Of a stretch of 26,181 nt of DNA, positions 5,048-15,580 are shown one piece after another. Position numbers and translations under genes: made by a program. Below the pieces are notes generated by a model, which made no database searches, had not been told where the DNA came from, and worked only from the letters and a program-made list of their open reading frames with translations. Source of the stretch: a virus (taxonomy: Duplodnaviria; Heunggongvirae; Uroviricota; Caudoviricetes); IMG/VR virus record IMGVR_UViG_2778261575_000004; one strand, given 5' to 3'. Positions within the stretch are counted from its first letter, which is position 1; every line of letters starts with the position of its first letter.

Positions 5048-5344
5048 ATGCTGACGAAAGAACCATCATTTGCATCGCTGCTGGTAAAACAAAGCCCGGC
5101 AATGCACTACGGTCACGGCTGGATCATGGGTGAGGATGGTAAACGCTGGCATCCGTGCCGTTCACAAGATGAATTGCTGTCTGAATTGACCACGGGGAAA
5201 CGGAGAAAGTCAAAATGTATGCAGCGGAAAGTGAAGTGGTTTATCAGTTTCGTTACAGAGGGGAGAGTTATTCAGTACCTGAAGATGATTTGCTCTGTTG
5301 TTATCCGTCGTTGTCGGGCGATGGCAGTTACTTTTTCACGCTAA
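5048..5344 (+). CDS. Hypothetical early protein (Fil-like position); 3' end uncertain
   Basis: ORF starting at ATG 5048 after GAGGTG. Its last ~130 nt overlap, in another frame, the better-supported ORF starting at 5215, so the true C-terminus or the reading frame is uncertain. Confidence 0.35.
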   Translation: MLTKEPSFASLLVKQSPAMHYGHGWIMGEDGKRWHPCRSQDELLSELTTGKRRKSKCMQRKVKWFISFVTEGRVIQYLKMICSVVIRRCRAMAVTFSR

Positions 5345-5439
5345 AGGATGGGACGTTTTTACGGGGAGAGCAGGTTAAAGAAACGATACGAAAAAATGTA
5401 TCTCCTCTCGAACGTTACCGTAAGAACAAAGAACAATAG
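5215..5439 (+). CDS. Hypothetical small early protein
   Basis: 74-aa ORF with good RBS (ACGGAGAAAGTCAAAATG) in the early operon. Confidence 0.5.
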   Translation: MYAAESEVVYQFRYRGESYSVPEDDLLCCYPSLSGDGSYFFTLKDGTFLRGEQVKETIRKNVSPLERYRKNKEQ

Positions 5440-5461
5440 TTGCGTTTTGGGGATATGAATT

Positions 5462-5803
5462 ATGGCAATTAATGGCGCTGCAGCGACTGTTCCATTAAGC
5501 CCCGGTGAACGCCTGAATGGACTTAATCATATTGCGGAGTTAAGGGCGAAAGTATTTGGCCTTAATATTGAGTCAGAGCTTGAGCGGTTTATTAAAGATA
5601 TGCGTGATCCACGGGATATCAATAATGAACAAAATAAACGGGCACTGGCTGCCATATTCTTTATGGCAAAAATTCCAGCTGAACGTCATAGCATCAGCAT
5701 TAATGAGCTGACCACTGACGAAAAGCGGGAGTTGATTAAAGCAATGAATCATTTTCGTGCAGTGGTGAGCTTATTTCCCAGACGGCTAACCATGCCGAAT
5801 TAA
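5462..5803 (+). CDS. Hypothetical early protein
   Basis: 113-aa ORF in operon context. Confidence 0.55.
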   Translation: MAINGAAATVPLSPGERLNGLNHIAELRAKVFGLNIESELERFIKDMRDPRDINNEQNKRALAAIFFMAKIPAERHSISINELTTDEKRELIKAMNHFRAVVSLFPRRLTMPN

Positions 5804-5870
5804 CCAACTAATGAAATTAATGGCGTAAACCCGCCGGGCATCCCTTTATCTAAATTCAGGAGAATTGATT

Positions 5871-6104
5871 ATGCGTAATATTGAAACCCTCTCGACTAAA
5901 ACCGGACCGGATGACGCAGGGCTTAATATTTTACTGACAGAGGCTCGTCTGGAAGAACGCCGGGCAAGGGCTGAAGCAATGGCAGCTCGCCTTGATAGCC
6001 TGGCGTGTCATATCACATCCCGCCAGCTAAACCACGTCGAAGCGGCAGAACTGCTGCGTGTAACTGCTGAAGCAATCCAGAACGAAGCGCAGGAGATCCA
6101 CTAA
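5871..6104 (+). CDS. Hypothetical small early protein
   Basis: ATG at 5871 preceded by CAGGAG at 8-nt spacing (the ORF track begins at an in-frame TTG at 5865); stop overlaps the start of the next gene. Confidence 0.55.
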   Translation: MRNIETLSTKTGPDDAGLNILLTEARLEERRARAEAMAARLDSLACHITSRQLNHVEAAELLRVTAEAIQNEAQEIH

Positions 6105-6331
6105 TGGCTGATGCAATGGATCTCGTACAGCAGCGCGTTGAAGAAGAACGCCAGCGCCATATTCGTGCTGCCCGTGCCAAAACACCGGGCGTGTCTCGCG
6201 TGCTTTGTATTGAATGTGAAGCGCCAATTCCGCCAGCACGACGCCGCGCCATTCCGGGAGTGCAGCTTTGCATTACCTGCCAGGAAATCGTAGAGCTGAA
6301 AGGCAAACATTACAACGGAGGTGCTGTATGA
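6104..6331 (+). CDS. TraR/DksA-family C4 zinc-finger protein (P2 orf82-like)
   Basis: 75 aa with CIECEAP-x17-CITCQ (CxxC-N17-CxxC), the TraR/DksA zinc-finger arrangement; located in the early operon before A. Confidence 0.8.
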
Positions 6332-6630
6332 CAGGGGCTGTGCGTATCCATCAATTAAAAATTGCACCTAAGTATTTCAATGCTGTGGTTGCAGGTCAAA
6401 AGACGGTTGAACTTCGTAAAGACGATCGTGGCTATAAAGTTGGTGATGTTCTTTCTCTTTGCGAATGGAAGCATGGCGTATTTACGGGTAGGGAATGGGC
6501 CGCGGTTATCTCTCATGTGCTTCCGGTTAATGACGTCATGGCAGTTTCAGAACAATGGGTGATGCTATCAATTCGCTCATTAACCCCATTAGAAGCTTTA
6601 GGATATGTTATTGCAGGAGGTGCTGTATGA
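6328..6630 (+). CDS. ASCH/PUA-like DUF3850-family protein
   Basis: 100-aa ORF from ATG 6328 (RBS GGAGG); N-terminal [34 protein letters not shown] matches my recollection of the DUF3850 signature; translationally coupled (ATGA overlaps) on both sides. Confidence 0.65.
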
Positions 6631-7484
6631 GCACCATCCTGAAATGGGCGGGAAATAAAACCGCAATTATGTCTGAACTGAAAAAACACCTTCCTGCTGG
6701 CCCGCGACTGGTTGAACCTTTCGCGGGTTCCTGTGCTGTGATGATGGAGACGGATTATCCAAGCTATCTGGTTGCGGATATTAATCCTGATTTAATCAAC
6801 CTCTATAAAAAGGTTGCCGCTGATTGTGAATCGTTTATATCTCGCGCCAGAGTTTTATTTAAGGAAGCAAACAGGGAGGTGGCTTATTACAACATAAGGC
6901 AGGAGTTTAATTACTCAAATGAAATTACTGATTTCATGAAAGCGGTATATTTCCTGTATCTCAATCGTCACGGTTACCGTGGTTTATGTCGCTATAACAA
7001 GAGCGGGCATTTCAACATTCCCTACGGTAATTATAAAAATCCGTATTTCCCAGAAAAAGAAATTCGCGCATTTGCAGAAAAAGCCCAGCGGGCAACGTTT
7101 ATCTGCGCCAGCTTTGATGAAACGCTGGCGATGTTGAAGGCGGGGGATGTGGTGTATTGCGATCCGCCGTATGACGGCACGTTTTCCGGTTATCACACTG
7201 ACGGCTTCACTGAAGATGACCAGTATCACCTGGCATCCGTTCTTGAACATCGGTCATCAGAAGGACATCCGGTCATTGTTTCTAACAGTGACACATCCCT
7301 GATCCGTTCGCTGTATCGCAATTTTACTCACCACTACATCAAGGCAAAACGCAGCATCGGTGTGGCAGCTGGCGAGGGTAAATCAGCAACAGAAATCATT
7401 GCTGTTTCCGGGCCGCGCTGCTGGGTGGGATTTGATTATTCGCGTGGCGTGGATAGTTCTGCCGTGTACGGAGTACGTGCATGA
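6627..7484 (+). CDS. dam: DNA adenine methyltransferase (Dam-type, GATC-class N6-adenine MTase)
   Basis: Start ATG 6627 after AGGAGG. N-terminal KWAGNK and FAGSCAV motifs (AdoMet binding) and a DPPY catalytic motif (VYCDPPY). Confidence 0.9.
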
Positions 7485-9895
7485 GTCATGCCGATATGAA
7501 CAACTGCTGCGGCTTTAACGAAGCTGCCGCATCGTTCTCATGGAACAGCCCGAAAAAGGCCATTAACCCTTATCTGGACCCGGCGGAAGTTGCGCCGGTT
7601 TCTACGCTTTCAAACCTGATCACTCTGTACGCTGCCGATAACGAGCAGGAACAGCTGCGCCGTGAGGCGCTGAGTGATCAGGTCTGGGAGCGTTATTTCT
7701 TTAATGAATCCCGTGATCCTGTCCAGCGCGAAATGGAGCAGGATAAGCTCATTAGTCGGGCAAAGCTGGCGCATGAGCAGCAGCGTTTTAACCCGGACAT
7801 GGTCATTCTGGCAGACGTCAGCGCCCAGCCCTCCCATATCAGCAAGCCGCTGATGCAACGTATTGAATACTTCAGCAGCCTTGGCAGGCCAAAGGCTTAT
7901 TCCCGCTATTTGCGTGAGACGATTAAGCCATGTCTGGAACGGCTGGAGCATGTACGCGACAGTCAGCTATCCACATCTTTTCGCTTTATGGCAAGCCATG
8001 AAGGGCTGGACGGCCTGCTGATTCTGCCTGAAATGAGTCAGGATCAGGTGAAACGCCTGTCCACCCTTGTTGCTGCGCATATGAGCATGTGCCTTGATGC
8101 AGCTTGTGGCGATTTGTATGCCACCGATGACGTTAAGCCAGAAGAAATCCGCAAGACATGGGAAAAGGTGGCAGCAGAAACCCTGCGACTGGATGTCATA
8201 CCGCCTGCGTTTGAGCAACTCCGCCGGAAAAGAAACCGCCGTAAACCCGTGCCATATGAACTCATTCCGGGTTCGCTGGCGCGTATGTTGTGCGCCGATT
8301 GGTGGTACCGGAAATTATGGAAGATGCGTTGCGAATGGCGGGAAGAGCAGTTGCGTGCTGTTTGCCTGGTCAGCAAAAAAGCATCTCCCTATGTCAGCTA
8401 TGAAGCCGTGATGCATAAACGTGAGCAGCGCCGTAAGTCGCTGGAGTTTTTCCGTTCTCATGAACTGGTGAACGAAGACGGCGACACGCTGGACATGGAG
8501 GATGTGGTAAACGCCAGCAGCAGCAACCCTGCGCATCGCCGCAATGAGATGATGGCCTGTGTTAAAGGTCTGGAGCTTATCGCGGAAATGCGCGGTGACT
8601 GCGCCGTTTTCTACACCATCACCTGTCCGTCACGTTTCCATTCCACGCTAAATAACGGCAGGCCCAACCCGACCTGGACAAATACGACGGTAAGACAAAG
8701 CAGTGATTATCTGGTCGGCATGTTTGCTGCATTTCGTAAGGCGATGCACAAAGCCGGATTGCGCTGGTATGGCGTGCGGGTGGCTGAGCCGCATCATGAC
8801 GGTACAGTTCACTGGCACCTGTTGTGTTTTATGCGCAAAAAAGATCGCCGCACCATTACTGCTTTGTTGCGTAAGTTTGCCATTCGTGAAGACCGCGAGG
8901 AGCTGGGTAATAACACGGGACCACGCTTTAAGTCTGAGCTGATAAACCCGCGCAAAGGTACGCCAACAAGCTACATCGCGAAATACATCAGTAAGAACAT
9001 TGACGGGCGTGGTCTGGCTGGCGAGATCAGCAAGGAAACGGGTAAATCCCTGCGTGATAACGCTGAATACGTTAATGCCTGGGCGTCTCTGCATCGTGTT
9101 CAGCAATTCCGCTTCTTTGGCATTCCGGGGCGTCAGGCTTACCGTGAACTGCGATTGCTGGCTGGTCAGGCGGCAAGGCAACAGGGGGACAAAAAAGCAG
9201 GTGCGCCGGTACTGGATAACCCGCGCCTTGATGCAATCCTGGCTGCTGCTGATGCTGGTTGTTTTGCCACCTACATCATGAAGCAGGGCGGCGTACTGGT
9301 TCCCCGCAAATATCACCTCATCAGAACTGCTTATGAAATCAACGAAGAACCGACCGCATATGGCGATCACGGTATTCGTATTTATGGCATCTGGTCACCC
9401 ATTGCAGAGGGCAAGATCTGCACTCATGCGGTGAAGTGGAAAATGGTTCGTAAGGCCGTTGACGTTCAGGAGGCGGCAGCCGACCAGGGCGCTTGCGCCC
9501 CTTGGACTCGTGGCAATAACTGTCCCCTTGCTGAAAATTTGCACCAACAAGGGAAAGACAAATCAACTGATGGGGATACCAGAACGGATATCACCCGTAT
9601 GAATGACAAGGAGTTGCACGATTACCTGCACAGTATGAGCAAAAAAGAGCGCCGGGAACTGACAGCAAGATTACGCCTGGTGAAACCGAAACGGCGTAAA
9701 GACTACAAACAGCGAATTACAGAGTATCAGCGTCAGCAGCTTGTCTATGAACTGAAGTCCAGAGGATTTGATGGCAGCGAGAAAGAAGTCGATTTGCTCC
9801 TTCGCGGTGGCAGTATTCCATCAGGAGCAGGCCTGCGTATCTTCTATCGGAACCAGCGTCTGAAGGAAGATGATAAGTGGCGGAACCTGTATTAA
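7481..9895 (+). CDS. A: Replication initiation endonuclease, P2 gpA family (rolling-circle initiator)
   Basis: 804-aa ORF, ATGA-coupled to dam; contains the HxH metal-binding motif (TVHWHLLCF) and the conserved tyrosine-containing region ([14 protein letters not shown]) typical of gpA-type nickases. Confidence 0.9.
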
Positions 9896-9987
9896 TTACG
9901 CGGGTTAACAATTCGTGCTCTTAATAATACCAGGCATATCAGGCTGATGAACGTAAAAAAACGTTTTACATCAGTAATATTATTATA

Positions 9988-10007
9988 TACTGCAAATATA
10001 AACAGTG
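9988..10007 (+). promoter_or_regulatory. LexA box (SOS operator) upstream of the tum-like gene
   Basis: TACTGCAAATATAAACAGTG matches the CTG-N10-CAG LexA consensus (taCTGTatatatatACAGta). A second, weaker overlapping box lies at 10003-10022 (CAGTGATTATATATACAGTG). About 40 bp upstream of ATG 10048. Confidence 0.6.
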
Positions 10008-10047
10008 ATTATATATACAGTGTTGCTTTGGTGTCATAGGAGGAAAG

Positions 10048-10236
10048 ATGCAGGACTATTTTTTGGAGTCTTTGAAGCTCCAGCGCATTGATTTTTTTCT
10101 TAAGCTTGTAGCGGCTAGTGAGTGTAGTGATGAAGAGAAGGGGCTGGCCCTGCAGTGGGTTTCTGAACTGACAGATGAACTCATGGCAAAAATCAGAACC
10201 CACGAATACAACCGCTCAATGGATGTCATCAGTTGA
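10048..10236 (+). CDS. Tum-like antirepressor, N-terminal portion (possibly one gene with the next ORF)
   Basis: 62-aa ORF with RBS GGAGGAAAG directly downstream of the LexA box. Overlaps, in a different frame, the 5' extension of the following DinI-like ORF. Confidence 0.45.
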   Translation: MQDYFLESLKLQRIDFFLKLVAASECSDEEKGLALQWVSELTDELMAKIRTHEYNRSMDVIS

Positions 10237-10246
10237 GGTGGCTTTT

Positions 10247-10480
10247 ATGCGCATTGAAATAATGATCGATAAAGAGCAGAAGATTAGCCAGTCTACCCTG
10301 GACGCCCTTGAATCCGAGCTTTACCGCAATCTGCGCCCCCTGTATCCCAAAACGGTAATTCGTATCCGCAAAGGTAGCTCTAACGGTGTGGAACTGACCG
10401 GACTGCAACTGGACGAAGAAAGAAAACAAGTGATGAAAATTATGCAGAAGGTGTGGGAAGACGACAGCTGGCTGCATTAG
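10247..10480 (+). CDS. DinI-family protein (Tum C-terminal domain-like)
   Basis: 77 aa beginning MRIEIMIDKEQ...RIRKGSSNGVELTGLQLDEERKQVMKIMQKVWEDDSWLH, which resembles DinI (MRIEVTIAKT...ETWESADDWF). Confidence 0.75.
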   Translation: MRIEIMIDKEQKISQSTLDALESELYRNLRPLYPKTVIRIRKGSSNGVELTGLQLDEERKQVMKIMQKVWEDDSWLH

Positions 10481-10549
10481 AGAACGTTGCGGATGATAAA
10501 ACTAGCTTTTACCATCTGCAAGGCTGAACAACGATTGTAGCGAGGTGTT

Positions 10550-10599
10550 AGGTGGTTCAAAAGTAAAGCGGTTATTTTGCCCGTAAAAGTGAACCACCT
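10550..10599. repeat. Perfect 10-bp inverted repeat (AGGTGGTTCA ... TGAACCACCT) with 30-nt spacer between convergent genes
   Basis: Arms at 10550-10559 and 10590-10599, followed by a T-rich stretch; lies between the DinI-like gene (+) and the 246-aa hotspot gene (-). Confidence 0.4.
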
Positions 10600-10608
10600 G
10601 TATCTTGA

Positions 10609-11349
10609 TCAGTTTTCTTTGAATTTTTCACTTAATCGTTTCGTCAATACTTCGACAGATTCTTTGCGACCGGAGAACAAGTCATTGACGACGTACTCCA
10701 TAATCTCAAAAGCATCCTCAATGTCTTTGACTTTTACTTCATCGTAGGTATGGCTTCCGGCATTTCCTAAAAATTTAATTGCCATAAGAGGTCTTGAAAA
10801 CGATCCGTATAATTCAGGTAGCATCCCTAAACGGTGGTGTAGAGTTATGCGTTTGCCATTATCATTACGTTCAGCTACATCCATAGCGGTTAGCATTCTT
10901 TCAACTGAAATTCGAATTAGGTTTGCTGCTGCGCCAGGCTGTATTAGGAAAATGGAAAATGAGGCTTCAAGCGGTTCGGTAATTTCTTCTGGGCATTTTT
11001 CAGGTATTTCGAAAGGATGCAGTGATGGGTAAAAGGTGAAAGGTCTGTGCCATTGATAGTACTCAATATCATTTCTTTCTTCATCCCAACCTTGTTCCCA
11101 TCCACTCTTACCAGTACAGGCCACAACTTCACCACATTGCATTCTTGAACAGCGGGCCATGCAACTGAAAATAGATGAATCCATTTCTAGTTCAAACCAA
11201 TCTTCACTGCGGAATTTTCGGGTATCATGTGTGTCATACGAGACGAAACTTTCTTTAATGATCTGTAGGGTTTTCTGATTGCAGTTAGGGCAGGGCCACT
11301 CAACCTGCATATCGTGGAAAAACGCACCAGAGAGCTTGTGCACAGTCAT
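10609..11349 (-). CDS. Hypothetical protein: N-terminal Cys-rich zinc-ribbon-like region plus C-terminal DUF4145-like helical domain; candidate defence/exclusion gene at the P2 tin/old position
   Basis: 246-aa ORF with RBS GAGGAA, AT-rich. Cys pairs CPNC (20-23) and C63/C67/C72/C78. C-terminal LIRISVERMLTAM...AIKFLGNAGSHT...VKDIEDAFEIMEYVVNDLF resembles, from memory, the GN.a.H-containing DUF4145 domain. Sits between A/tum and cos, where P2 carries tin and old. Confidence 0.6.
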   Translation of the reverse strand: MTVHKLSGAFFHDMQVEWPCPNCNQKTLQIIKESFVSYDTHDTRKFRSEDWFELEMDSSIFSCMARCSRMQCGEVVACTGKSGWEQGWDEERNDIEYYQWHRPFTFYPSLHPFEIPEKCPEEITEPLEASFSIFLIQPGAAANLIRISVERMLTAMDVAERNDNGKRITLHHRLGMLPELYGSFSRPLMAIKFLGNAGSHTYDEVKVKDIEDAFEIMEYVVNDLFSGRKESVEVLTKRLSEKFKEN

Positions 11350-11550
11350 TCTTTGTGTTCCTCATTTTTATGATTGGTAGGGATTGTATCTTCATACACG
11401 ATTACAGTTGCATTAAAGATAAGCCATAGCAAGCTACTGGAAAAGAGACGAAACAGTTGGGCATATCAGATGTTTTTTCTTAAGGTAAGTTGTTGTGCAT
11501 GCCTATACTGCATGAGATTGCATGATCGTTTGAGGATCGTTATTGCTAAG

Positions 11551-11575
11551 GCCCACCAGAACTGGCGGGCTTTTG
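11551..11575 (+). other. Imperfect hairpin followed by TTTTG in the cos-proximal region
   Basis: GCCCACC-agaac-TGGCGGGC then TTTTGCG; one mismatch in the stem. Could be a terminator or a packaging-related structure. Confidence 0.25.
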
Positions 11576-11619
11576 CGTAGAGCATGCAGGTGCATGAAAA
11601 CCACTACATAAAGCGGGCA

Positions 11620-11638
11620 GGCGTGGCGGGGATACGAG
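11620..11638. other. cos-like site (P2/186-type cohesive end sequence)
   Basis: GGCGTGGCGGGGA matches the first 13 nt of the 19-nt cohesive end as I recall it for 186 (GGCGTGGCGGGGAAAGCAT) and P2 (GGCGAGGCGGGGAAAGCAC); followed by a GCGCGC-rich segment. Lies between the A-side hotspot and portal gene Q, as expected for a P2-like prophage. Confidence 0.4.
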
Positions 11639-11910
11639 CGCGCGCCGCGGGTTGAAATAGTAAAATTCACTTAGCCTCAGGCCCGCTGATGGTTTTCTTC
11701 TGAAAGGGAGGGCGCGTTTTTGTGCAATCTTGTTTGAAGGGATTTAAATAAATGTTGAATGTGTTCCGGAGTTGGCTGTAGATTTAGTGTTCTGTCACAA
11801 GTTGCAGTGATAGGTAGCAAACCTTTAAAAGGTTCTGCTATTGTTTCATTAAAGATTTATAGTCTTTGTCCGAAAATGACATTAAAGTAGTCGCCTTTAA
11901 TGTCGTAAGC

Positions 11911-12465
11911 ATGAAGGACAGAGAATTGAACTTAGAGCAGATTGCCAGTCAAAGTATAAGTAACCTTCAGTTTCTCCTCGATACTTTGAAGATGCCGTTG
12001 GCTGTTGGTCCAATCAGTGATGAAGACTATGTGATCCTGACCACAGGATACGCTCAGCTAGAATGGGATTATGGTTTTTCTCGGTTTGGCAATCGAAGTG
12101 ATAAGTTTGAATTTTGTTTGAAGCTCCTTGCGGGGCCACTTAGGCATATCCCTTCTGGCGCAGCTATGTGCACCTTTGACGAGGACGCTGGAGTCATAGA
12201 GATCCATTTTGTGGAATCTTTTGTGAAAGATGATGACGTAGAGCACCCTCTTTACGGCAACATGTTCATGGTTACATTGTGGGCGGTATATCTTTTTGGT
12301 AGCGCGGTTGGGTGTCAAGAGATTCGGATCCCTGAAGCCCTGAATCAAAAAGTTGCTGACCACTATAAAAAATTTGGTTTTAAAGGTGATATAAGCTTGC
12401 TTTCGGCACCTTTTGCTACAATAACTGATGTAGTAAGACGCTACATTACTTCTAAGAAACAGTAG
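11911..12465 (+). CDS. Hypothetical protein, cargo between cos and Q (possible degenerate GNAT-like C-terminus)
   Basis: 184 aa from ATG 11911 (the ORF track gives 199 aa from TTG 11866). C-terminal ...ALNQKVADHYKKFGFKGD is reminiscent of the GNAT motif-B signature, but no clear motif A is seen; assignment weak. Confidence 0.5.
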   Translation: MKDRELNLEQIASQSISNLQFLLDTLKMPLAVGPISDEDYVILTTGYAQLEWDYGFSRFGNRSDKFEFCLKLLAGPLRHIPSGAAMCTFDEDAGVIEIHFVESFVKDDDVEHPLYGNMFMVTLWAVYLFGSAVGCQEIRIPEALNQKVADHYKKFGFKGDISLLSAPFATITDVVRRYITSKKQ

Positions 12466-12544
12466 ATAAATTTTTGCGCAGTGCTACAATGCTGCGCCAA
12501 ACATCCACCACCGGATGATGAGGCTTGACCTCTAAGAGGAAATC

Positions 12545-12724
12545 ATGACTATGACGCATAGTGACAAGAAAGCTCAGAAGCATTACTCAGTATCTGATGT
12601 TTTCAGCCGTATGGGCGTCGCGATGGAAGAACTACTTCAAGCGGCCCCACATATGATGCAGGACTGCAAATTTGAAGGAAATGAGCTGCATGGTAAGCTC
12701 AAAGAAAAGCAGAAAGCTGCTTAA
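12545..12724 (+). CDS. Small hypothetical protein (59 aa)
   Basis: Hand-translated ORF not in the supplied track: ATG 12545 preceded by AAGAGGA at 7 nt, stop TAA 12722-12724, immediately followed by a strong terminator. Confidence 0.35.
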   Translation: MTMTHSDKKAQKHYSVSDVFSRMGVAMEELLQAAPHMMQDCKFEGNELHGKLKEKQKAA

Positions 12725-12747
12725 TTCCATGAAATGCGTTTTGCATG

Positions 12748-12775
12748 AAGCCCGGTAATACCGGGCTTTTTTATG
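12748..12775 (+). terminator. Rho-independent terminator
   Basis: Perfect palindrome AAGCCCGGTA-A-TACCGGGCTT followed by TTTTTTAT; lies between the small ORF and the 3' end of Q. Confidence 0.7.
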
Positions 12776-12779
12776 CTTG

Positions 12780-13817
12780 CTAGTCAGTATTAAGCTCATA
12801 TGGATTGAATCGGACTACCTCTTCACCAAGCCATTCATTTAGCTCCAGCAATCGCTTTTGTAACGGTACTATTTCGTTTCTTGTGAAGACGCGACTGGCC
12901 TTTTCCACATCCCCAAAACCGCCGGTATTGTTGGGAATGATACCCATCATTTGCGGCGGCACACGATGCGCCGCCATCATGTCGTCCCGGCTCACGTTCT
13001 TGATATTCAGGAACTCATCCTTCGCCGCCACTTCTGACAACGGGATAATCTGAAGCCCATCCTTTTTGCCGTTAGGCGAGTACATAAACAGGTTACGGAA
13101 GTTACCAGGACCTTTGGCACTTTTCATTGCGTTGCGGAGGTTGTTCACATCCTCCTGGTTCTGCGCGGCGTCGGTCATGTACATGATGAAGCCCGCATGG
13201 CTGCCGTTAATGTAATACTTCCGGCGGAACAGCGTGGCGGACTCGTTGAGCAGGGCTGACGGAATGGCAGAAAGATAACCGGGCAGGCCGTAGATCTCCT
13301 GGTTGATGTCCGGCTCCATCAGATGAAAAATGCTGCCTTTCGTGAACTGATACGGCTGGGTTGTCATACTGTATTGCACAAACCAGTAGGTATCCAGGTC
13401 TAACCCGCGTCGGGTGTATTTTGCCAGAGCAGGCTCAAGGGCTATAACTTCACCGAAGCGGTTCGTGCGTTTCTCCAGGTAGGCGTTACCAAAAACCAGA
13501 AAGTCCTGTACAAAACGCGAAAAAGCCTGCTGGCTGAGCAGCGGGTGAGGGATGTAGGTGCTGGTCAGAATGTTGCACTTCACTGCAATCGGTGAGCTAT
13601 GATGTATGGCGGCGCGGAAGGTTCGCGCCAGTCCGTCGAAACTCACAGGCAGCTCATACCAACGATCCATCTGTACGCATTCCACATAGTCCAGCAGTTC
13701 GCGGCGGTCCAGAACAGGAACGGGATCACCGAAGCTGAATGCTTCGGCTGAAGTCTGGCTTTTATGCTGGATCTGTTTCGTCGACGCAGCGCGGTTCTTC
13801 TTACTCTTTCCCATCAA
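12780..13817 (-). CDS. Q: Portal protein (P2 gpQ family)
   Basis: 345-aa ORF, first of the leftward Q-P late operon; size and position as in P2; 4-nt overlap with P. Confidence 0.88.
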   Translation of the reverse strand: MMGKSKKNRAASTKQIQHKSQTSAEAFSFGDPVPVLDRRELLDYVECVQMDRWYELPVSFDGLARTFRAAIHHSSPIAVKCNILTSTYIPHPLLSQQAFSRFVQDFLVFGNAYLEKRTNRFGEVIALEPALAKYTRRGLDLDTYWFVQYSMTTQPYQFTKGSIFHLMEPDINQEIYGLPGYLSAIPSALLNESATLFRRKYYINGSHAGFIMYMTDAAQNQEDVNNLRNAMKSAKGPGNFRNLFMYSPNGKKDGLQIIPLSEVAAKDEFLNIKNVSRDDMMAAHRVPPQMMGIIPNNTGGFGDVEKASRVFTRNEIVPLQKRLLELNEWLGEEVVRFNPYELNTD

Positions 13818-15580
13818 AAAATCTCCACAATATTGCTGGTATTGGCGGACTCGCCCTGCAGCGGTTCGTTAAACAGTGCGTGCATTGTTGCCCAGGCCAG
13901 ATCGGCATGGCTGGCTTCTTCGCTGCGGCTGGCTTCATAGGTCGGGCGGTTGCCACTGGCAGTGGTAGCGCGACGGATTGCCATAAATGACTGCGCAATG
14001 TCGGTGTGCCCGGCGTCAAACTCCAGGCGGCGGTGGCTGATAATGTCGTAGGCCTTGAGTACCAGGGCGTTTTTAACGTTGGGGTTGTAGACAAACTCCC
14101 GGACGGCAGGAAAAAACGCTTTCACGTTCTCGTAAACCCCGTGACCGACGCCGGTCGAGTCGATGCCGATATAGGTCACGTTATACTGTTCGGTCAGTTT
14201 TTTGATGGCGTCAGCCTGGGCGCGAAAGTCCATTCCGCGCCACTGGTGACGCTCAAGAATGCGGAACTTGCCGCCCGGCACGGCTGGCGGAGCCACCACC
14301 ACGCATCCGGCGCTGTCGCCGTTTTGCGTACCTTTTGCCGGGTCATAACCGATCCACACTTCGCGCCAGCCAAACGGGCGCAGCGCCAGTGCATGAAAGT
14401 CGGTCCAGACTTCCCAGCTGTCCACCATGCACGCCTGCAGCTCGCTGAGCGGGAACACGGACGCGAGATCGTCCACGAACTCACACATCAGCAGGTTCTG
14501 GTATTCGTCCGGGCTGTACTCCATGCGCAACTGGTCGAGGTCGAACAGGTTACAGCCGCCGCGCACCGCATCTTCCACAGTGACTATCTGGCGGTACTGC
14601 CCGTCTGCGCACAGCAGGCCGGGGGCCAGATTGCTGTGGGACAGGTCGATGTCCACCTTATCGGCTTTGTTGCGCCCTCGGTTGAACAGCGCACCGGACC
14701 AGAACGGATAAGCACTGTGTGTCAGGCTGGATGGCGTGGAAAAATAGGTTTGTCGCCATTTTTTGTGAATAGCCATACCGGAAGCCACTTTGCGCAGCTC
14801 CTGGAATTTCGGTATCCAGAAATATTCATCCAGATACAGGTTGCCGTGGTAACTCTGGGCCGTGCGGGCATTGGTGCCGAGGAAGTACAGCGTGGCCCCG
14901 TTAGGAAGCACCATCGGATCGCCTTTCAGCTCCACCTCCACTTCTTTGGCGAAGTCGATGATGTACTGCTTAAAGACGTGGGCCTGAGCCTTGCTGGCGG
15001 AAAGGAAAATCTGGTTACGCCCGGTTAGCAGGGCGTCAATCAGGGCTTCACGGGCAAAATAGAAGGTCGCGCCGATCTGGCGTGACTTCAGCAGGTTGCG
15101 GATGCGGTTGGTTTTTCCGGCTTCCCACCAGTGGCGCTGGTAGTTGAACATGGAGGAATGGAAGATTTCTTCCAGCTTCTCAATCTGTTCATCGGTGAAA
15201 ACGTTCTTTTCCGGCTGACGGCGCGGGCCTTTGTTGCGGTTGGCGACGTTAGGGTTTAAGTCGGCTTCGTTGCCGCCATTGTTAAACTTGCCGATCCGCG
15301 CATGGCGCTCCGACTGGCGCGCCAGCAGGTCAATCTCTTTGAAATCTTTCCCTTCTTTGTGCTCCTTCATAATGAGCTGGCAGTAGCGTGCGGCGGTGGT
15401 GAGCTGCATCTGATCCAGCGGCCCATAGTCACCCCACTTGTCGCGTTTTTTCCAGCTGTGAACGGTTGCAACTTTCTCGCCCAGCATTTCAGCAATGCGG
15501 GCGACGCGGTATCCCTGAAAGTACAGCAGCATGGCCTGCCGACGGGGATCGAGATCTGCGGGTGTCAGTGTGGTGTTCAT
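13814..15580 (-). CDS. P: Terminase large (ATPase) subunit (P2 gpP family)
   Basis: 588-aa ORF divergent from O-N-M-L; Walker-A-like NLLKSRQIGATFYF and a C-terminal nuclease region. Confidence 0.9.
   Translation of the reverse strand: MNTTLTPADLDPRRQAMLLYFQGYRVARIAEMLGEKVATVHSWKKRDKWGDYGPLDQMQLTTAARYCQLIMKEHKEGKDFKEIDLLARQSERHARIGKFNNGGNEADLNPNVANRNKGPRRQPEKNVFTDEQIEKLEEIFHSSMFNYQRHWWEAGKTNRIRNLLKSRQIGATFYFAREALIDALLTGRNQIFLSASKAQAHVFKQYIIDFAKEVEVELKGDPMVLPNGATLYFLGTNARTAQSYHGNLYLDEYFWIPKFQELRKVASGMAIHKKWRQTYFSTPSSLTHSAYPFWSGALFNRGRNKADKVDIDLSHSNLAPGLLCADGQYRQIVTVEDAVRGGCNLFDLDQLRMEYSPDEYQNLLMCEFVDDLASVFPLSELQACMVDSWEVWTDFHALALRPFGWREVWIGYDPAKGTQNGDSAGCVVVAPPAVPGGKFRILERHQWRGMDFRAQADAIKKLTEQYNVTYIGIDSTGVGHGVYENVKAFFPAVREFVYNPNVKNALVLKAYDIISHRRLEFDAGHTDIAQSFMAIRRATTASGNRPTYEASRSEEASHADLAWATMHALFNEPLQGESANTSNIVEIF

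Follow-up and report, generated by a model that had tools for sequence, protein, structure and literature searches.

A mobile two-gene cassette with a predicted GNAT-fold enzyme in the portal-side arm of the gpA-gpQ hotspot of a P2-like prophage

Introduction

What is the stretch of about 1.1 kb of low-GC DNA that lies between the cohesive-end site (cos) and the portal gene of a P2-like prophage: is it a unit in its own right or one half of a system that straddles cos, and what could it do for the prophage that carries it? The question is raised by the IMG/VR record IMGVR_UViG_2778261575_000004 (Caudoviricetes), a stretch of 26,181 nucleotides (nt), hereafter the window, that is a P2-like prophage and in which replication gene A is followed by a 62-amino-acid (aa) open reading frame (ORF), a DinI-like gene, a 246-aa gene, cos, a cargo of two ORFs, the portal gene Q and the terminase gene P. 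The cos-proximal region between gpA and gpQ of P2-like phages is an anti-phage hotspot, shown by experiment to abound in defence systems (Rousset et al. 2022, PMC9122126; Vassallo et al. 2022, PMC9519451). The raw arrangements in Table S5A of the former study list the small 59-aa protein of the cargo (WP_021523861) beside a partner marked 'hypothetical'; the pair was neither curated, named nor assayed there (Rousset et al. 2022, PMC9122126).

We report here that a mobile cassette of two genes, self-contained in the manner of a 'moron', occupies the portal-side arm of this hotspot (positions 11689-12790). The split island around cos is the already published gpA-gpQ hotspot and the slot is not new; what is new is that one unstudied occupant of it is defined as a discrete, mobile and strictly paired module, whose enzyme belongs to a GNAT-fold family unrecognised by curated libraries.

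Results and discussion

A cassette inserted between cos and the portal gene

A close P2-like prophage of avian pathogenic Escherichia coli (APEC) O18, in which DinI, cos and Q are directly consecutive, served as the 'empty' reference. Backbone homology to this prophage covers positions 9901-10534, 11491-11688 and 12791-13900 of the window, and from these breakpoints it follows that the window carries two separate insertions, one on the gpA side (10535-11490) and one on the portal side (11689-12790; Table 1). GC content is 0.42-0.45 in the portal-side insertion versus 0.51-0.62 in the structural genes (portal and terminase), and among 5,426 complete E. coli genomes searched, 1,276 had a match to the cos block and 11 of these carried the full-length portal-side cargo. 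An initial annotation, made from the letters of the window, had described about 1.1 kb of lower-GC accessory cargo between cos and the portal gene, and both the placement and the accessory reading hold: the cargo is missing from most P2-like prophages, which also rules out that it encodes a morphogenesis or packaging factor of the P2 family. The slot is variable among collinear P2-like prophages and empty in APEC O18, as expected of a hotspot, and the cassette itself has the properties of a moron, i.e., one or more predicted promoters and a terminator of its own, insertion between conserved genes, low GC, patchy presence and occurrence in at least six slots.

On its left the cassette is bounded by the conserved cos block, in which the 19-nt cohesive end GGCGTGGCGGGGATACGAG lies at 11620-11638. 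Its first position is set at 11620 because the linear record of Salmonella phage SEN8 ends at the counterpart of window position 11619; together with the record of phage Cartapus, which annotates the matching block as a P2-type cos, this confirms the position that had been proposed for cos. The sequence GGCGTGGCGGGGATACGAG is one that we take to resemble the P2/186 cohesive end. On the right, the portal gene is convergent to the cassette and has its stop codon at 12780. In enterotoxigenic E. coli (ETEC) strains whose cargo is 99.7% identical to that of the window, the portal gene is split by the IS66-family element ISCro1 (E. coli TW11681, NZ_CP035855.1, locus 5221-8962), and because of this split the TW11681 prophage is probably defective; the neighbouring cassette is intact.

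Table 1 Positions in the window of the cassette, its genes and predicted signals, and the flanking features
Feature	Position	Strand	Evidence and remarks
Whole cassette	11689-12790	+	1,102 bp in place of 133 bp in APEC O18; breakpoints, low GC, rarity in the slot
Candidate -10 for gene 1 (TATAGT)	11858-11863	+	Read off the sequence; 68 nt before TTG 11926, weak -35; tentative
Gene 1, divergent acidic GNAT-fold acyltransferase (predicted), 179 aa, phrog_4350	11926-12465	+	Start comparison, PHROG E 3e-77, AlphaFold2 model
Predicted gene 2 promoter, TAGATA-16 nt-TG-c-TACAAT (extended -10)	12463-12490	+	Promoter scan; begins at the gene 1 stop codon
Gene 2 5' leader	12502-12541	+	Hairpin CATCC...GGATG 12502-12517; GAGG/CCTC element 12520-12532; tentative
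Gene 2, 59 aa, phrog_2741	12545-12724	+	PHROG E 1.6e-30, AlphaFold2 model, alignments, dN/dS
Intrinsic terminator closing the cassette	12747-12775	+	10-bp stem, 3-nt loop (12747-12769) and T-run; 5 nt before the portal stop
Conserved cos block, P2-like backbone	11491-11688	no strand	Left boundary of the cargo; 89.5% identity to its counterpart in APEC O18 (no cargo)
Portal gene Q, backbone	12780-13817	-	Right boundary, outside the cassette; ORF list, RefSeq on identical DNA, 85% identity to the APEC O18 portal gene
Terminase P	13814-15580	-	ORF list, library matches, RefSeq annotation
Replication gene A	7481-9895	+	ORF list, library matches, RefSeq annotation
246-aa DUF4145 gene, in the separate insertion 10535-11490	10609-11349	-	Pfam DUF4145 E 4.9e-13; PADLOC PD-T7-4 E 1.6e-5 (weak); phrog_1305

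Strict pairing, co-divergence and distribution

Relatives of the two genes were fetched in 102 loci (17 clusters at 80% identity), and in all 102 a gene 2 relative stood 3' of a gene 1 relative, on the same strand and in the same order; a scan of species-representative genomes gave 4 loci. As the IMG/VR loci are redundant, we count 17 lineages and not 102 independent events. Across these loci the identity of the gene 1 product to the window protein falls to about 35-39%, and the intergenic gap, 79 nt in the window, ranges from 81 to 255 nt. Approached from the side of the small protein the picture was the same, with 93 clusters, all from Enterobacterales, and the GNAT gene directly upstream in each of the four contexts sampled. 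Pairwise identities of the two proteins are correlated (r = 0.91 over 136 lineage pairs), and partners have therefore not been swapped between lineages. Where divergence at synonymous sites is unsaturated, gene 1 has a dN/dS of 0.08-0.13 and gene 2 one of 0.07-0.35; with both genes under purifying selection and conserved to about 35% identity or below, chance ORFs are ruled out. The two-ORF unit of the initial annotation is therefore real, and so is its 59-aa ORF with a ribosome-binding site, which also matches a PHROG family of its own (Table 1).

The same pair sits in several different slots. Besides the interval between cos and Q in P2-like phages and prophages of Escherichia, Pectobacterium, Pantoea, Edwardsiella, Lonsdalea and Mixta, it is found in lambdoid prophages between the antiterminator gene Q and the holin/lysis genes, in either orientation (in several lambdoid lineages that of the late operon) and once beside a RelA/SpoT-type gene. 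Two lineages have it directly 3' of the gene for an S24 CI repressor and codirectional with it; another slot is in the tail-gene region, on the opposite strand, and yet another is beside the integrase of a small Klebsiella integrative element with a DUF5906 primase, next to fis. Phage mEp460 carries the cassette on the opposite strand, with int and xis to either side of it (locus L002, 2561-5257), and the same mEp460-type cassette adjoins the host junction in prophages at the dusA/zur site of E. coli O157:H7 (locus L106, 2798-4281) and Salmonella. From this comparison, attP should be located between int and the cassette, and integration would then put the cassette at the extreme end of the prophage.

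The pair had also been proposed for a search outside phages, and none was found there: all contexts were temperate phages, prophages or the integrative element, and all were from Enterobacterales. Within these limits it is common: of the 5,426 complete E. coli genomes, 358 have a full-length match to the mEp460-type (lambdoid) cassette and 562 a match of any length, i.e., about 7-10%, including O157:H7, and relatives occur in prophages of Salmonella, Klebsiella, Enterobacter, Cronobacter, Pantoea, Pectobacterium and Serratia.

The RelA/SpoT-type neighbour was seen on a Hafnia metagenome contig (locus L107, 1650-2609), where the cassette stands between Q and holin directly after a 319-aa RelA/SpoT-domain gene. 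Enzymes of this type are known from toxic alarmone-synthetase defence modules, and by analogy the Hafnia arrangement suggests a small defence cluster in the late-operon slot.

Gene 1 encodes a predicted GNAT-fold enzyme

The reading frame of gene 1 is open from TTG 11866 (199 aa) and from ATG 11911 (184 aa, the RefSeq call), and its product had at first been given as 184-199 aa. While the open frame stands, neither start does. Across the 17 lineages the conserved start is a TTG, GTG or ATG with an AGGGA- or GGAGA-type Shine-Dalgarno sequence 6-8 nt upstream, the equivalent of which in the window is TTG 11926; translation from here yields a 179-aa product that opens M-N-L-E-Q. In relatives, the DNA 5' of the counterpart of this codon is out of frame, unrelated or absent, and the 179-aa call is already present in some RefSeq records of the same 90% cluster. 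On this comparison the 199-aa and 184-aa starts were rejected.

A short upstream ORF (ATG ACA TTA AAG TAG, 11874-11888) is contained in the leader of gene 1. The same upstream ATG opens an 8-codon ORF in Pectobacterium; in Pantoea and other relatives it reads on in frame into the GNAT gene, and this accounts for the inconsistent database gene calls of 190-199 aa.

Sequence libraries give few clues to the function of the protein. It has no match in Pfam (E <= 1), PADLOC or NCBIfam, and against the PDB sequences a single-sequence search returned chance matches only (Plastin-2, E 0.25) and a profile search nothing; the PHROG matches of both cassette proteins are to families annotated as of 'unknown function'. 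The family is small, with 29 clusters at 90% identity in a collection of 5.8 billion proteins and 77 representatives at E <= 1e-3 in one of 1.84 billion. Acetyltransf_1 matched one of 60 distant relatives taken from the latter search (E 0.0058), and two UniRef clusters of the family bear the name 'N-acetyltransferase'.

The structure model is more informative. Built from an alignment of 25 sequences, the AlphaFold2 (AF2) model (predicted local distance difference test, pLDDT, 82.9; predicted template modelling score, pTM, 0.81) shows the canonical GNAT order of strands (E) and helices (H) with extra N- and C-terminal helices. The elements are E30-33, H37-44, H52-59, E65-72, E81-90, E95-103, H118-133, E137-141, H146-153 and E158-167, i.e., the GNAT core topology beta1-alpha1-alpha2-beta2-beta3-beta4-alpha3-beta5-alpha4-beta6. 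A Foldseek search with this model gave 214 PDB matches at E <= 1e-3, and all of the 50 listed are GNAT acetyltransferases; the tRNA-acetylating toxins KacT, AtaT and TacT3 come at the top (E about 5e-6 to 1e-5) of a flat ranking, and in a library of viral structures the fold search found generic GNATs only. The 'weak GNAT-like signature' of the initial annotation has thereby grown into a full, if predicted, GNAT fold.

Two residues are near-invariant in the family, W52 and Y152, the latter within 'HYKKFGF', invariant in close relatives and conserved in >=90% of the 60 distant ones. From the motif pattern we infer that Y152, in alpha4, occupies the position of the motif-B general-acid tyrosine. 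Of the two GNAT motifs that the initial annotation had marked for checking, motif B is thus represented by its tyrosine, and the motif A consensus is matched at the central Gly only, in a loop between beta4 and alpha3 (HPLxGxM) that is itself invariant within the family. As modelled, the gene 1 product is a GNAT by fold and by its motif-B tyrosine, and not by curated sequence models.

Gene 2 encodes a small basic-tailed partner

Gene 2 is preceded by the Shine-Dalgarno sequence AAGAGGAA at 12534-12541. In its AF2 model (pLDDT 67) the protein is predicted to form one amphipathic helix (residues 16-39) between disordered, Lys/Arg-rich tails, and it has no match in Pfam, PADLOC or NCBIfam. All 17 lineages share an Ala-Ala C-terminus, in most cases preceded by a basic residue. 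Strong C-terminal degrons for ClpXP in E. coli require such an Ala-Ala end, although it does not suffice by itself (PMC10862746). Because the Ala-Ala end is invariant, the protein is probably short-lived.

Part of the small protein recurs elsewhere. Virulent phages of Klebsiella, Acinetobacter and Pectobacterium (Jedunavirus, Peatvirus-type) encode a 327-aa early protein, phrog_11133, of which about residues 58-92 are homologous to the core of the small protein (approximately residues 19-56), the shared motif being 'A.EEL.QAAP.M.Q...FEG.ELHGK.KE'. This early protein (Klebsiella phage KpV52 gp59, locus L010, 2333-3316; L011, 2354-3328; L012, 2315-3409) is encoded beside HNH, exonuclease and Gp2.5-like single-stranded DNA-binding protein genes and has no GNAT partner at these loci.

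Predicted transcription and translation signals

Most lineages have a -10-like hexamer, often TGnTATAAT, 36-85 nt 5' of the gene 1 start, and in several of them the terminator of the preceding unit lies directly 5' of the cassette. For gene 2, a -10-like hexamer was read by eye 15-35 nt past the GNAT stop codon in most of the 17 lineages (TGgTAGAAT, TGgTACAAT, TGcTATACT, TATAAT), at the place where the scan predicts a promoter in the window (Table 1). In all lineages examined, gene 2 is followed by a GC-rich hairpin and a T-run; in the window the terminator scan recovered the 10-bp stem that had initially been annotated at 12747-12769, together with its T-run.

In the leader of gene 2, the GAGG/CCTC element can pair with itself, or its CCTC with the GAGG of the Shine-Dalgarno sequence, and the latter pairing might gate translation of gene 2. 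The fold of 12497-12550 (-10.5 kcal/mol, z = -1.05) is not significant against shuffled sequences, and other lineages have hairpins of differing sequence at the same places of the leader. A known RNA antitoxin or riboswitch is not indicated, as an Rfam scan of 11350-12850 gave sub-threshold chance matches only.

What the cassette could do

We postulate, tentatively and as a reading that falls somewhat short of an even chance, that the cassette is a lysogen-expressed module of an effector and a labile partner that acts in phage exclusion. The cassette would be expressed from the prophage, with the acyltransferase as the effector, and the small protein, made in excess from its own promoter on top of read-through and probably short-lived, would bind the acyltransferase and restrain or direct it. 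An infecting phage would upset this balance and release the enzyme, which would then acylate a cellular or phage target and block phage growth; a basic protein or a polycation would be a likelier target than tRNA. Overall, such a cassette would be a toxin-antitoxin-like exclusion or abortive-infection module with a toxin-first gene order. A separate promoter for the downstream gene is a feature of the toxin-first modules mqsRA and rnlAB. The cassette is placed as genes expressed from prophages typically are, and the proposal fits the defence-rich slots, the position adjacent to CI, the structural neighbours of the enzyme and the way in which GNAT toxins are plugged by short segments of their antitoxins.

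A number of points weigh against this proposal. The motif A loop, H112-P-L-x-G116-x-M118, is degenerate with respect to Q/RxxGxG/A and longer than usual, only the central Gly fitting, and with the CoA-pyrophosphate motif in this state the use of acetyl-CoA is unproven. The enzyme is acidic, with an isoelectric point of 4.4-5.5 and a net charge of -4 to -16 across the family. GNAT toxins that bind tRNA are, unlike it, not known to be acidic, and the charge speaks indirectly against tRNA acetylation with growth arrest by this enzyme. On the side of the partner, the structure model is moderately confident, and Lys or Gln precedes the terminal Ala-Ala whereas strong degrons prefer Leu. As to expression, promoters and terminators were called only by their match to a consensus, and for gene 1 the promoter scan called none in the window. 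No PADLOC model matches either protein, and in the literature library searched neither the accessions nor the topic led to a study of them. Finally, GNAT toxins have a different kind of partner: in the GNAT/DUF1778 type II toxin-antitoxin family (TacAT, AtaRT, KacAT, ItaRT) the antitoxin is a DUF1778 protein of the ribbon-helix-helix (RHH) type, or DUF4065 in one clade (PMC9177977). The cassette partner has no DUF1778, RHH, DUF4065 or DNA-binding domain; and whereas those antitoxins are encoded upstream in a compact operon, it is always encoded downstream, after a spacer and with a -10 of its own.

A more specific version of the proposed module, which we consider improbable, would be a new toxin-first GNAT system in which a ClpXP-labile peptide of about 58 aa serves the acidic acyltransferase as a pseudo-substrate or plugs its active site; the phage protein phrog_11133, with its homologue of the core of about 35 aa, would then be the natural target or trigger of the enzyme, or a mimic of the inhibitor by which the phage disarms the enzyme.

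Among the other explanations, the one that survives best, though we judge it unlikely, is that the two proteins are an enzyme and its substrate or adaptor: the Lys-rich protein would be acylated by the GNAT, or would bring a target to it, with defence or host modulation as the output. The encounter of an acidic enzyme with the basic, disordered Lys/Arg-rich tails of its partner speaks for this, strict pairing and co-divergence fit it equally, and the structural matches include N-terminal acetyltransferases and an acetyltransferase of lasso peptides; moreover, with its core motif recurring inside the 327-aa early protein of virulent phages, the partner could be a recognition module. However, the cassette carries no genes for processing, export or further modification, individual Lys positions of the tails are not strictly conserved, and a separate and apparently stronger promoter for gene 2 would be unexpected under a simple substrate model.

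Could the cassette instead help its own phage, in counter-defence or host takeover, for example by acetylating an immunity protein of the host or of a rival? AcrVA5 is a GNAT anti-CRISPR that acetylates Cas12a, phage hotspots hold anti-defence besides defence genes, and the GNAT fold is confirmed by the model; in addition, the Q-holin cassettes that are codirectional with the late operon in several lambdoid lineages would be read in lytic growth too. The position directly after the CI repressor gene and codirectional with it speaks against such a role. In other lineages the cassette runs opposite to the surrounding lytic genes and has promoters and a terminator of its own, an arrangement suggestive of expression in the lysogen, and a role of this kind would leave the obligate small partner unexplained. 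We give this explanation a small probability.

Doubtful to a still greater degree is detoxification, whereby the GNAT would acetylate a polyamine, an aminoglycoside or a peptide-nucleotide antibiotic (processed microcin C) to the benefit of the lysogen. Acidic proteins are known among GNATs that act on polycations, and this protein is acidic too; SpeG spermidine acetyltransferases, AAC(6') and the tabtoxin-resistance protein are among the structural matches, and the slots are ones that morons typically occupy. These enzymes are, however, matched no better than any other GNAT, and such enzymes act alone, so that a conserved partner with its own promoter would be unexplained. Furthermore, the family is confined to phage accessory slots of Enterobacterales and was not met in resistance contexts (the plasmid collection was not searched); in the E. 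coli genomes, 4 of the 569 matches of the lambdoid form and 8 of the 1,322 places found with the window query (mostly the cos block) were on plasmids.

Cargo on the gpA side of cos

The initial annotation had joined the 246-aa gene and the pair into one accessory island split by cos, and this did not hold up. No P2-like relative with the pair has the same gpA-side cargo as the window (141 aa in TW11681; 66 + 260, 225 or 176 aa in three others; yet other genes in Pectobacterium, Pantoea and Edwardsiella). The arms of the hotspot hence vary independently of each other, and on this ground a single system spanning cos was rejected; the pair also occurs in lambdoid phages without a nearby cos. That the DUF4145 gene and the pair were nevertheless one system, split in the virion and joined on circularisation, is extremely improbable: cos has a low-GC insertion on either side and the defence model PD-T7-4 gives a weak match to the DUF4145 gene (E 1.6e-5), but the left-arm cargo changes from one pair-bearing relative to the next, the pair lives in lambdoid phages and in an integrative element without a DUF4145 neighbour, and the arms are contiguous anyway in the prophage and in the circular replicating genome. 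The 246-aa DUF4145 gene is likely an independent, single-gene defence candidate.

Between gene A and this gene, at 10048-10480, lie the 62-aa ORF (phrog_698) and the DinI-like gene (PF06183, E 1.4e-22), 3' of gene A. Since they are kept in most of the P2-like relatives examined, including the one with the empty hotspot, we regard both as backbone and not as variable cargo.

Significance and comparison with known systems

The module is not rare, its lambdoid form being widespread in E. coli and its relatives spread across Enterobacterales. If its defence or toxin-antitoxin-like role is true, an acyltransferase effector with an unusual small partner joins the known repertoire; if it does not act in defence, it is still a widespread accessory enzyme of prophages. 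Should the link to phrog_11133 be true, one sequence motif would tie a prophage defence module to a counterpart in virulent phages. With 1.1 kb, the cassette is easy to clone and a reasonable candidate for experiment.

Like other cargo of the P2 hotspot, the cassette occupies the slot between gene A and portal gene Q beside cos, and is low in GC, variable and short. It differs in lying on the portal side of cos, whereas P2 old and tin are on the gpA side, and in being found also in lambdoid and integrative-element slots, so that it is not specific to the P2 hotspot. Lambda rexAB and sieB are prophage exclusion genes expressed with the repressor or as morons, and the cassette resembles them as a unit of promoter, gene(s) and terminator between conserved genes, which in two lineages stands next to CI and is codirectional with it; there is no relationship in sequence or fold to RexA, RexB or SieB, the effector of the cassette having an acyltransferase fold. 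Gp29 and gp30 of mycobacteriophage Phrann form a prophage defence pair of a toxic enzyme and a small regulator, and the order of an enzyme followed by a small downstream partner is shared with the cassette, one lineage of which adjoins a RelA/SpoT-type gene. The enzyme is of another class and there is no homology, hence the analogy is one of architecture only.

The closest comparison is with the GNAT/DUF1778 systems. Like them, the cassette combines two genes, one of which encodes a GNAT-fold enzyme of about 170-180 aa that has the motif-B tyrosine and whose top structural neighbours are these very toxins; and in PDB 7ak9 and 6gtq, which show TacT and AtaT with their antitoxins, a short C-terminal segment of the antitoxin inhibits the toxin, a mode of binding that the predicted single helix of the cassette partner, with its disordered tails, resembles. 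In contrast to the toxins, the cassette enzyme is acidic, has a degenerate motif A and lacks a sequence match to Acetyltransf_1 or to solved toxins, and no DUF1778 or DUF4065 match was present among the flanking genes called or scanned in the fetched loci. Membership in the GNAT/DUF1778 (or DUF4065) toxin-antitoxin family is thus ruled out by the domain of the partner, the gene order, the spacer and promoter, and the sequence; by analogy, the cassette may still act in a manner similar to these systems.

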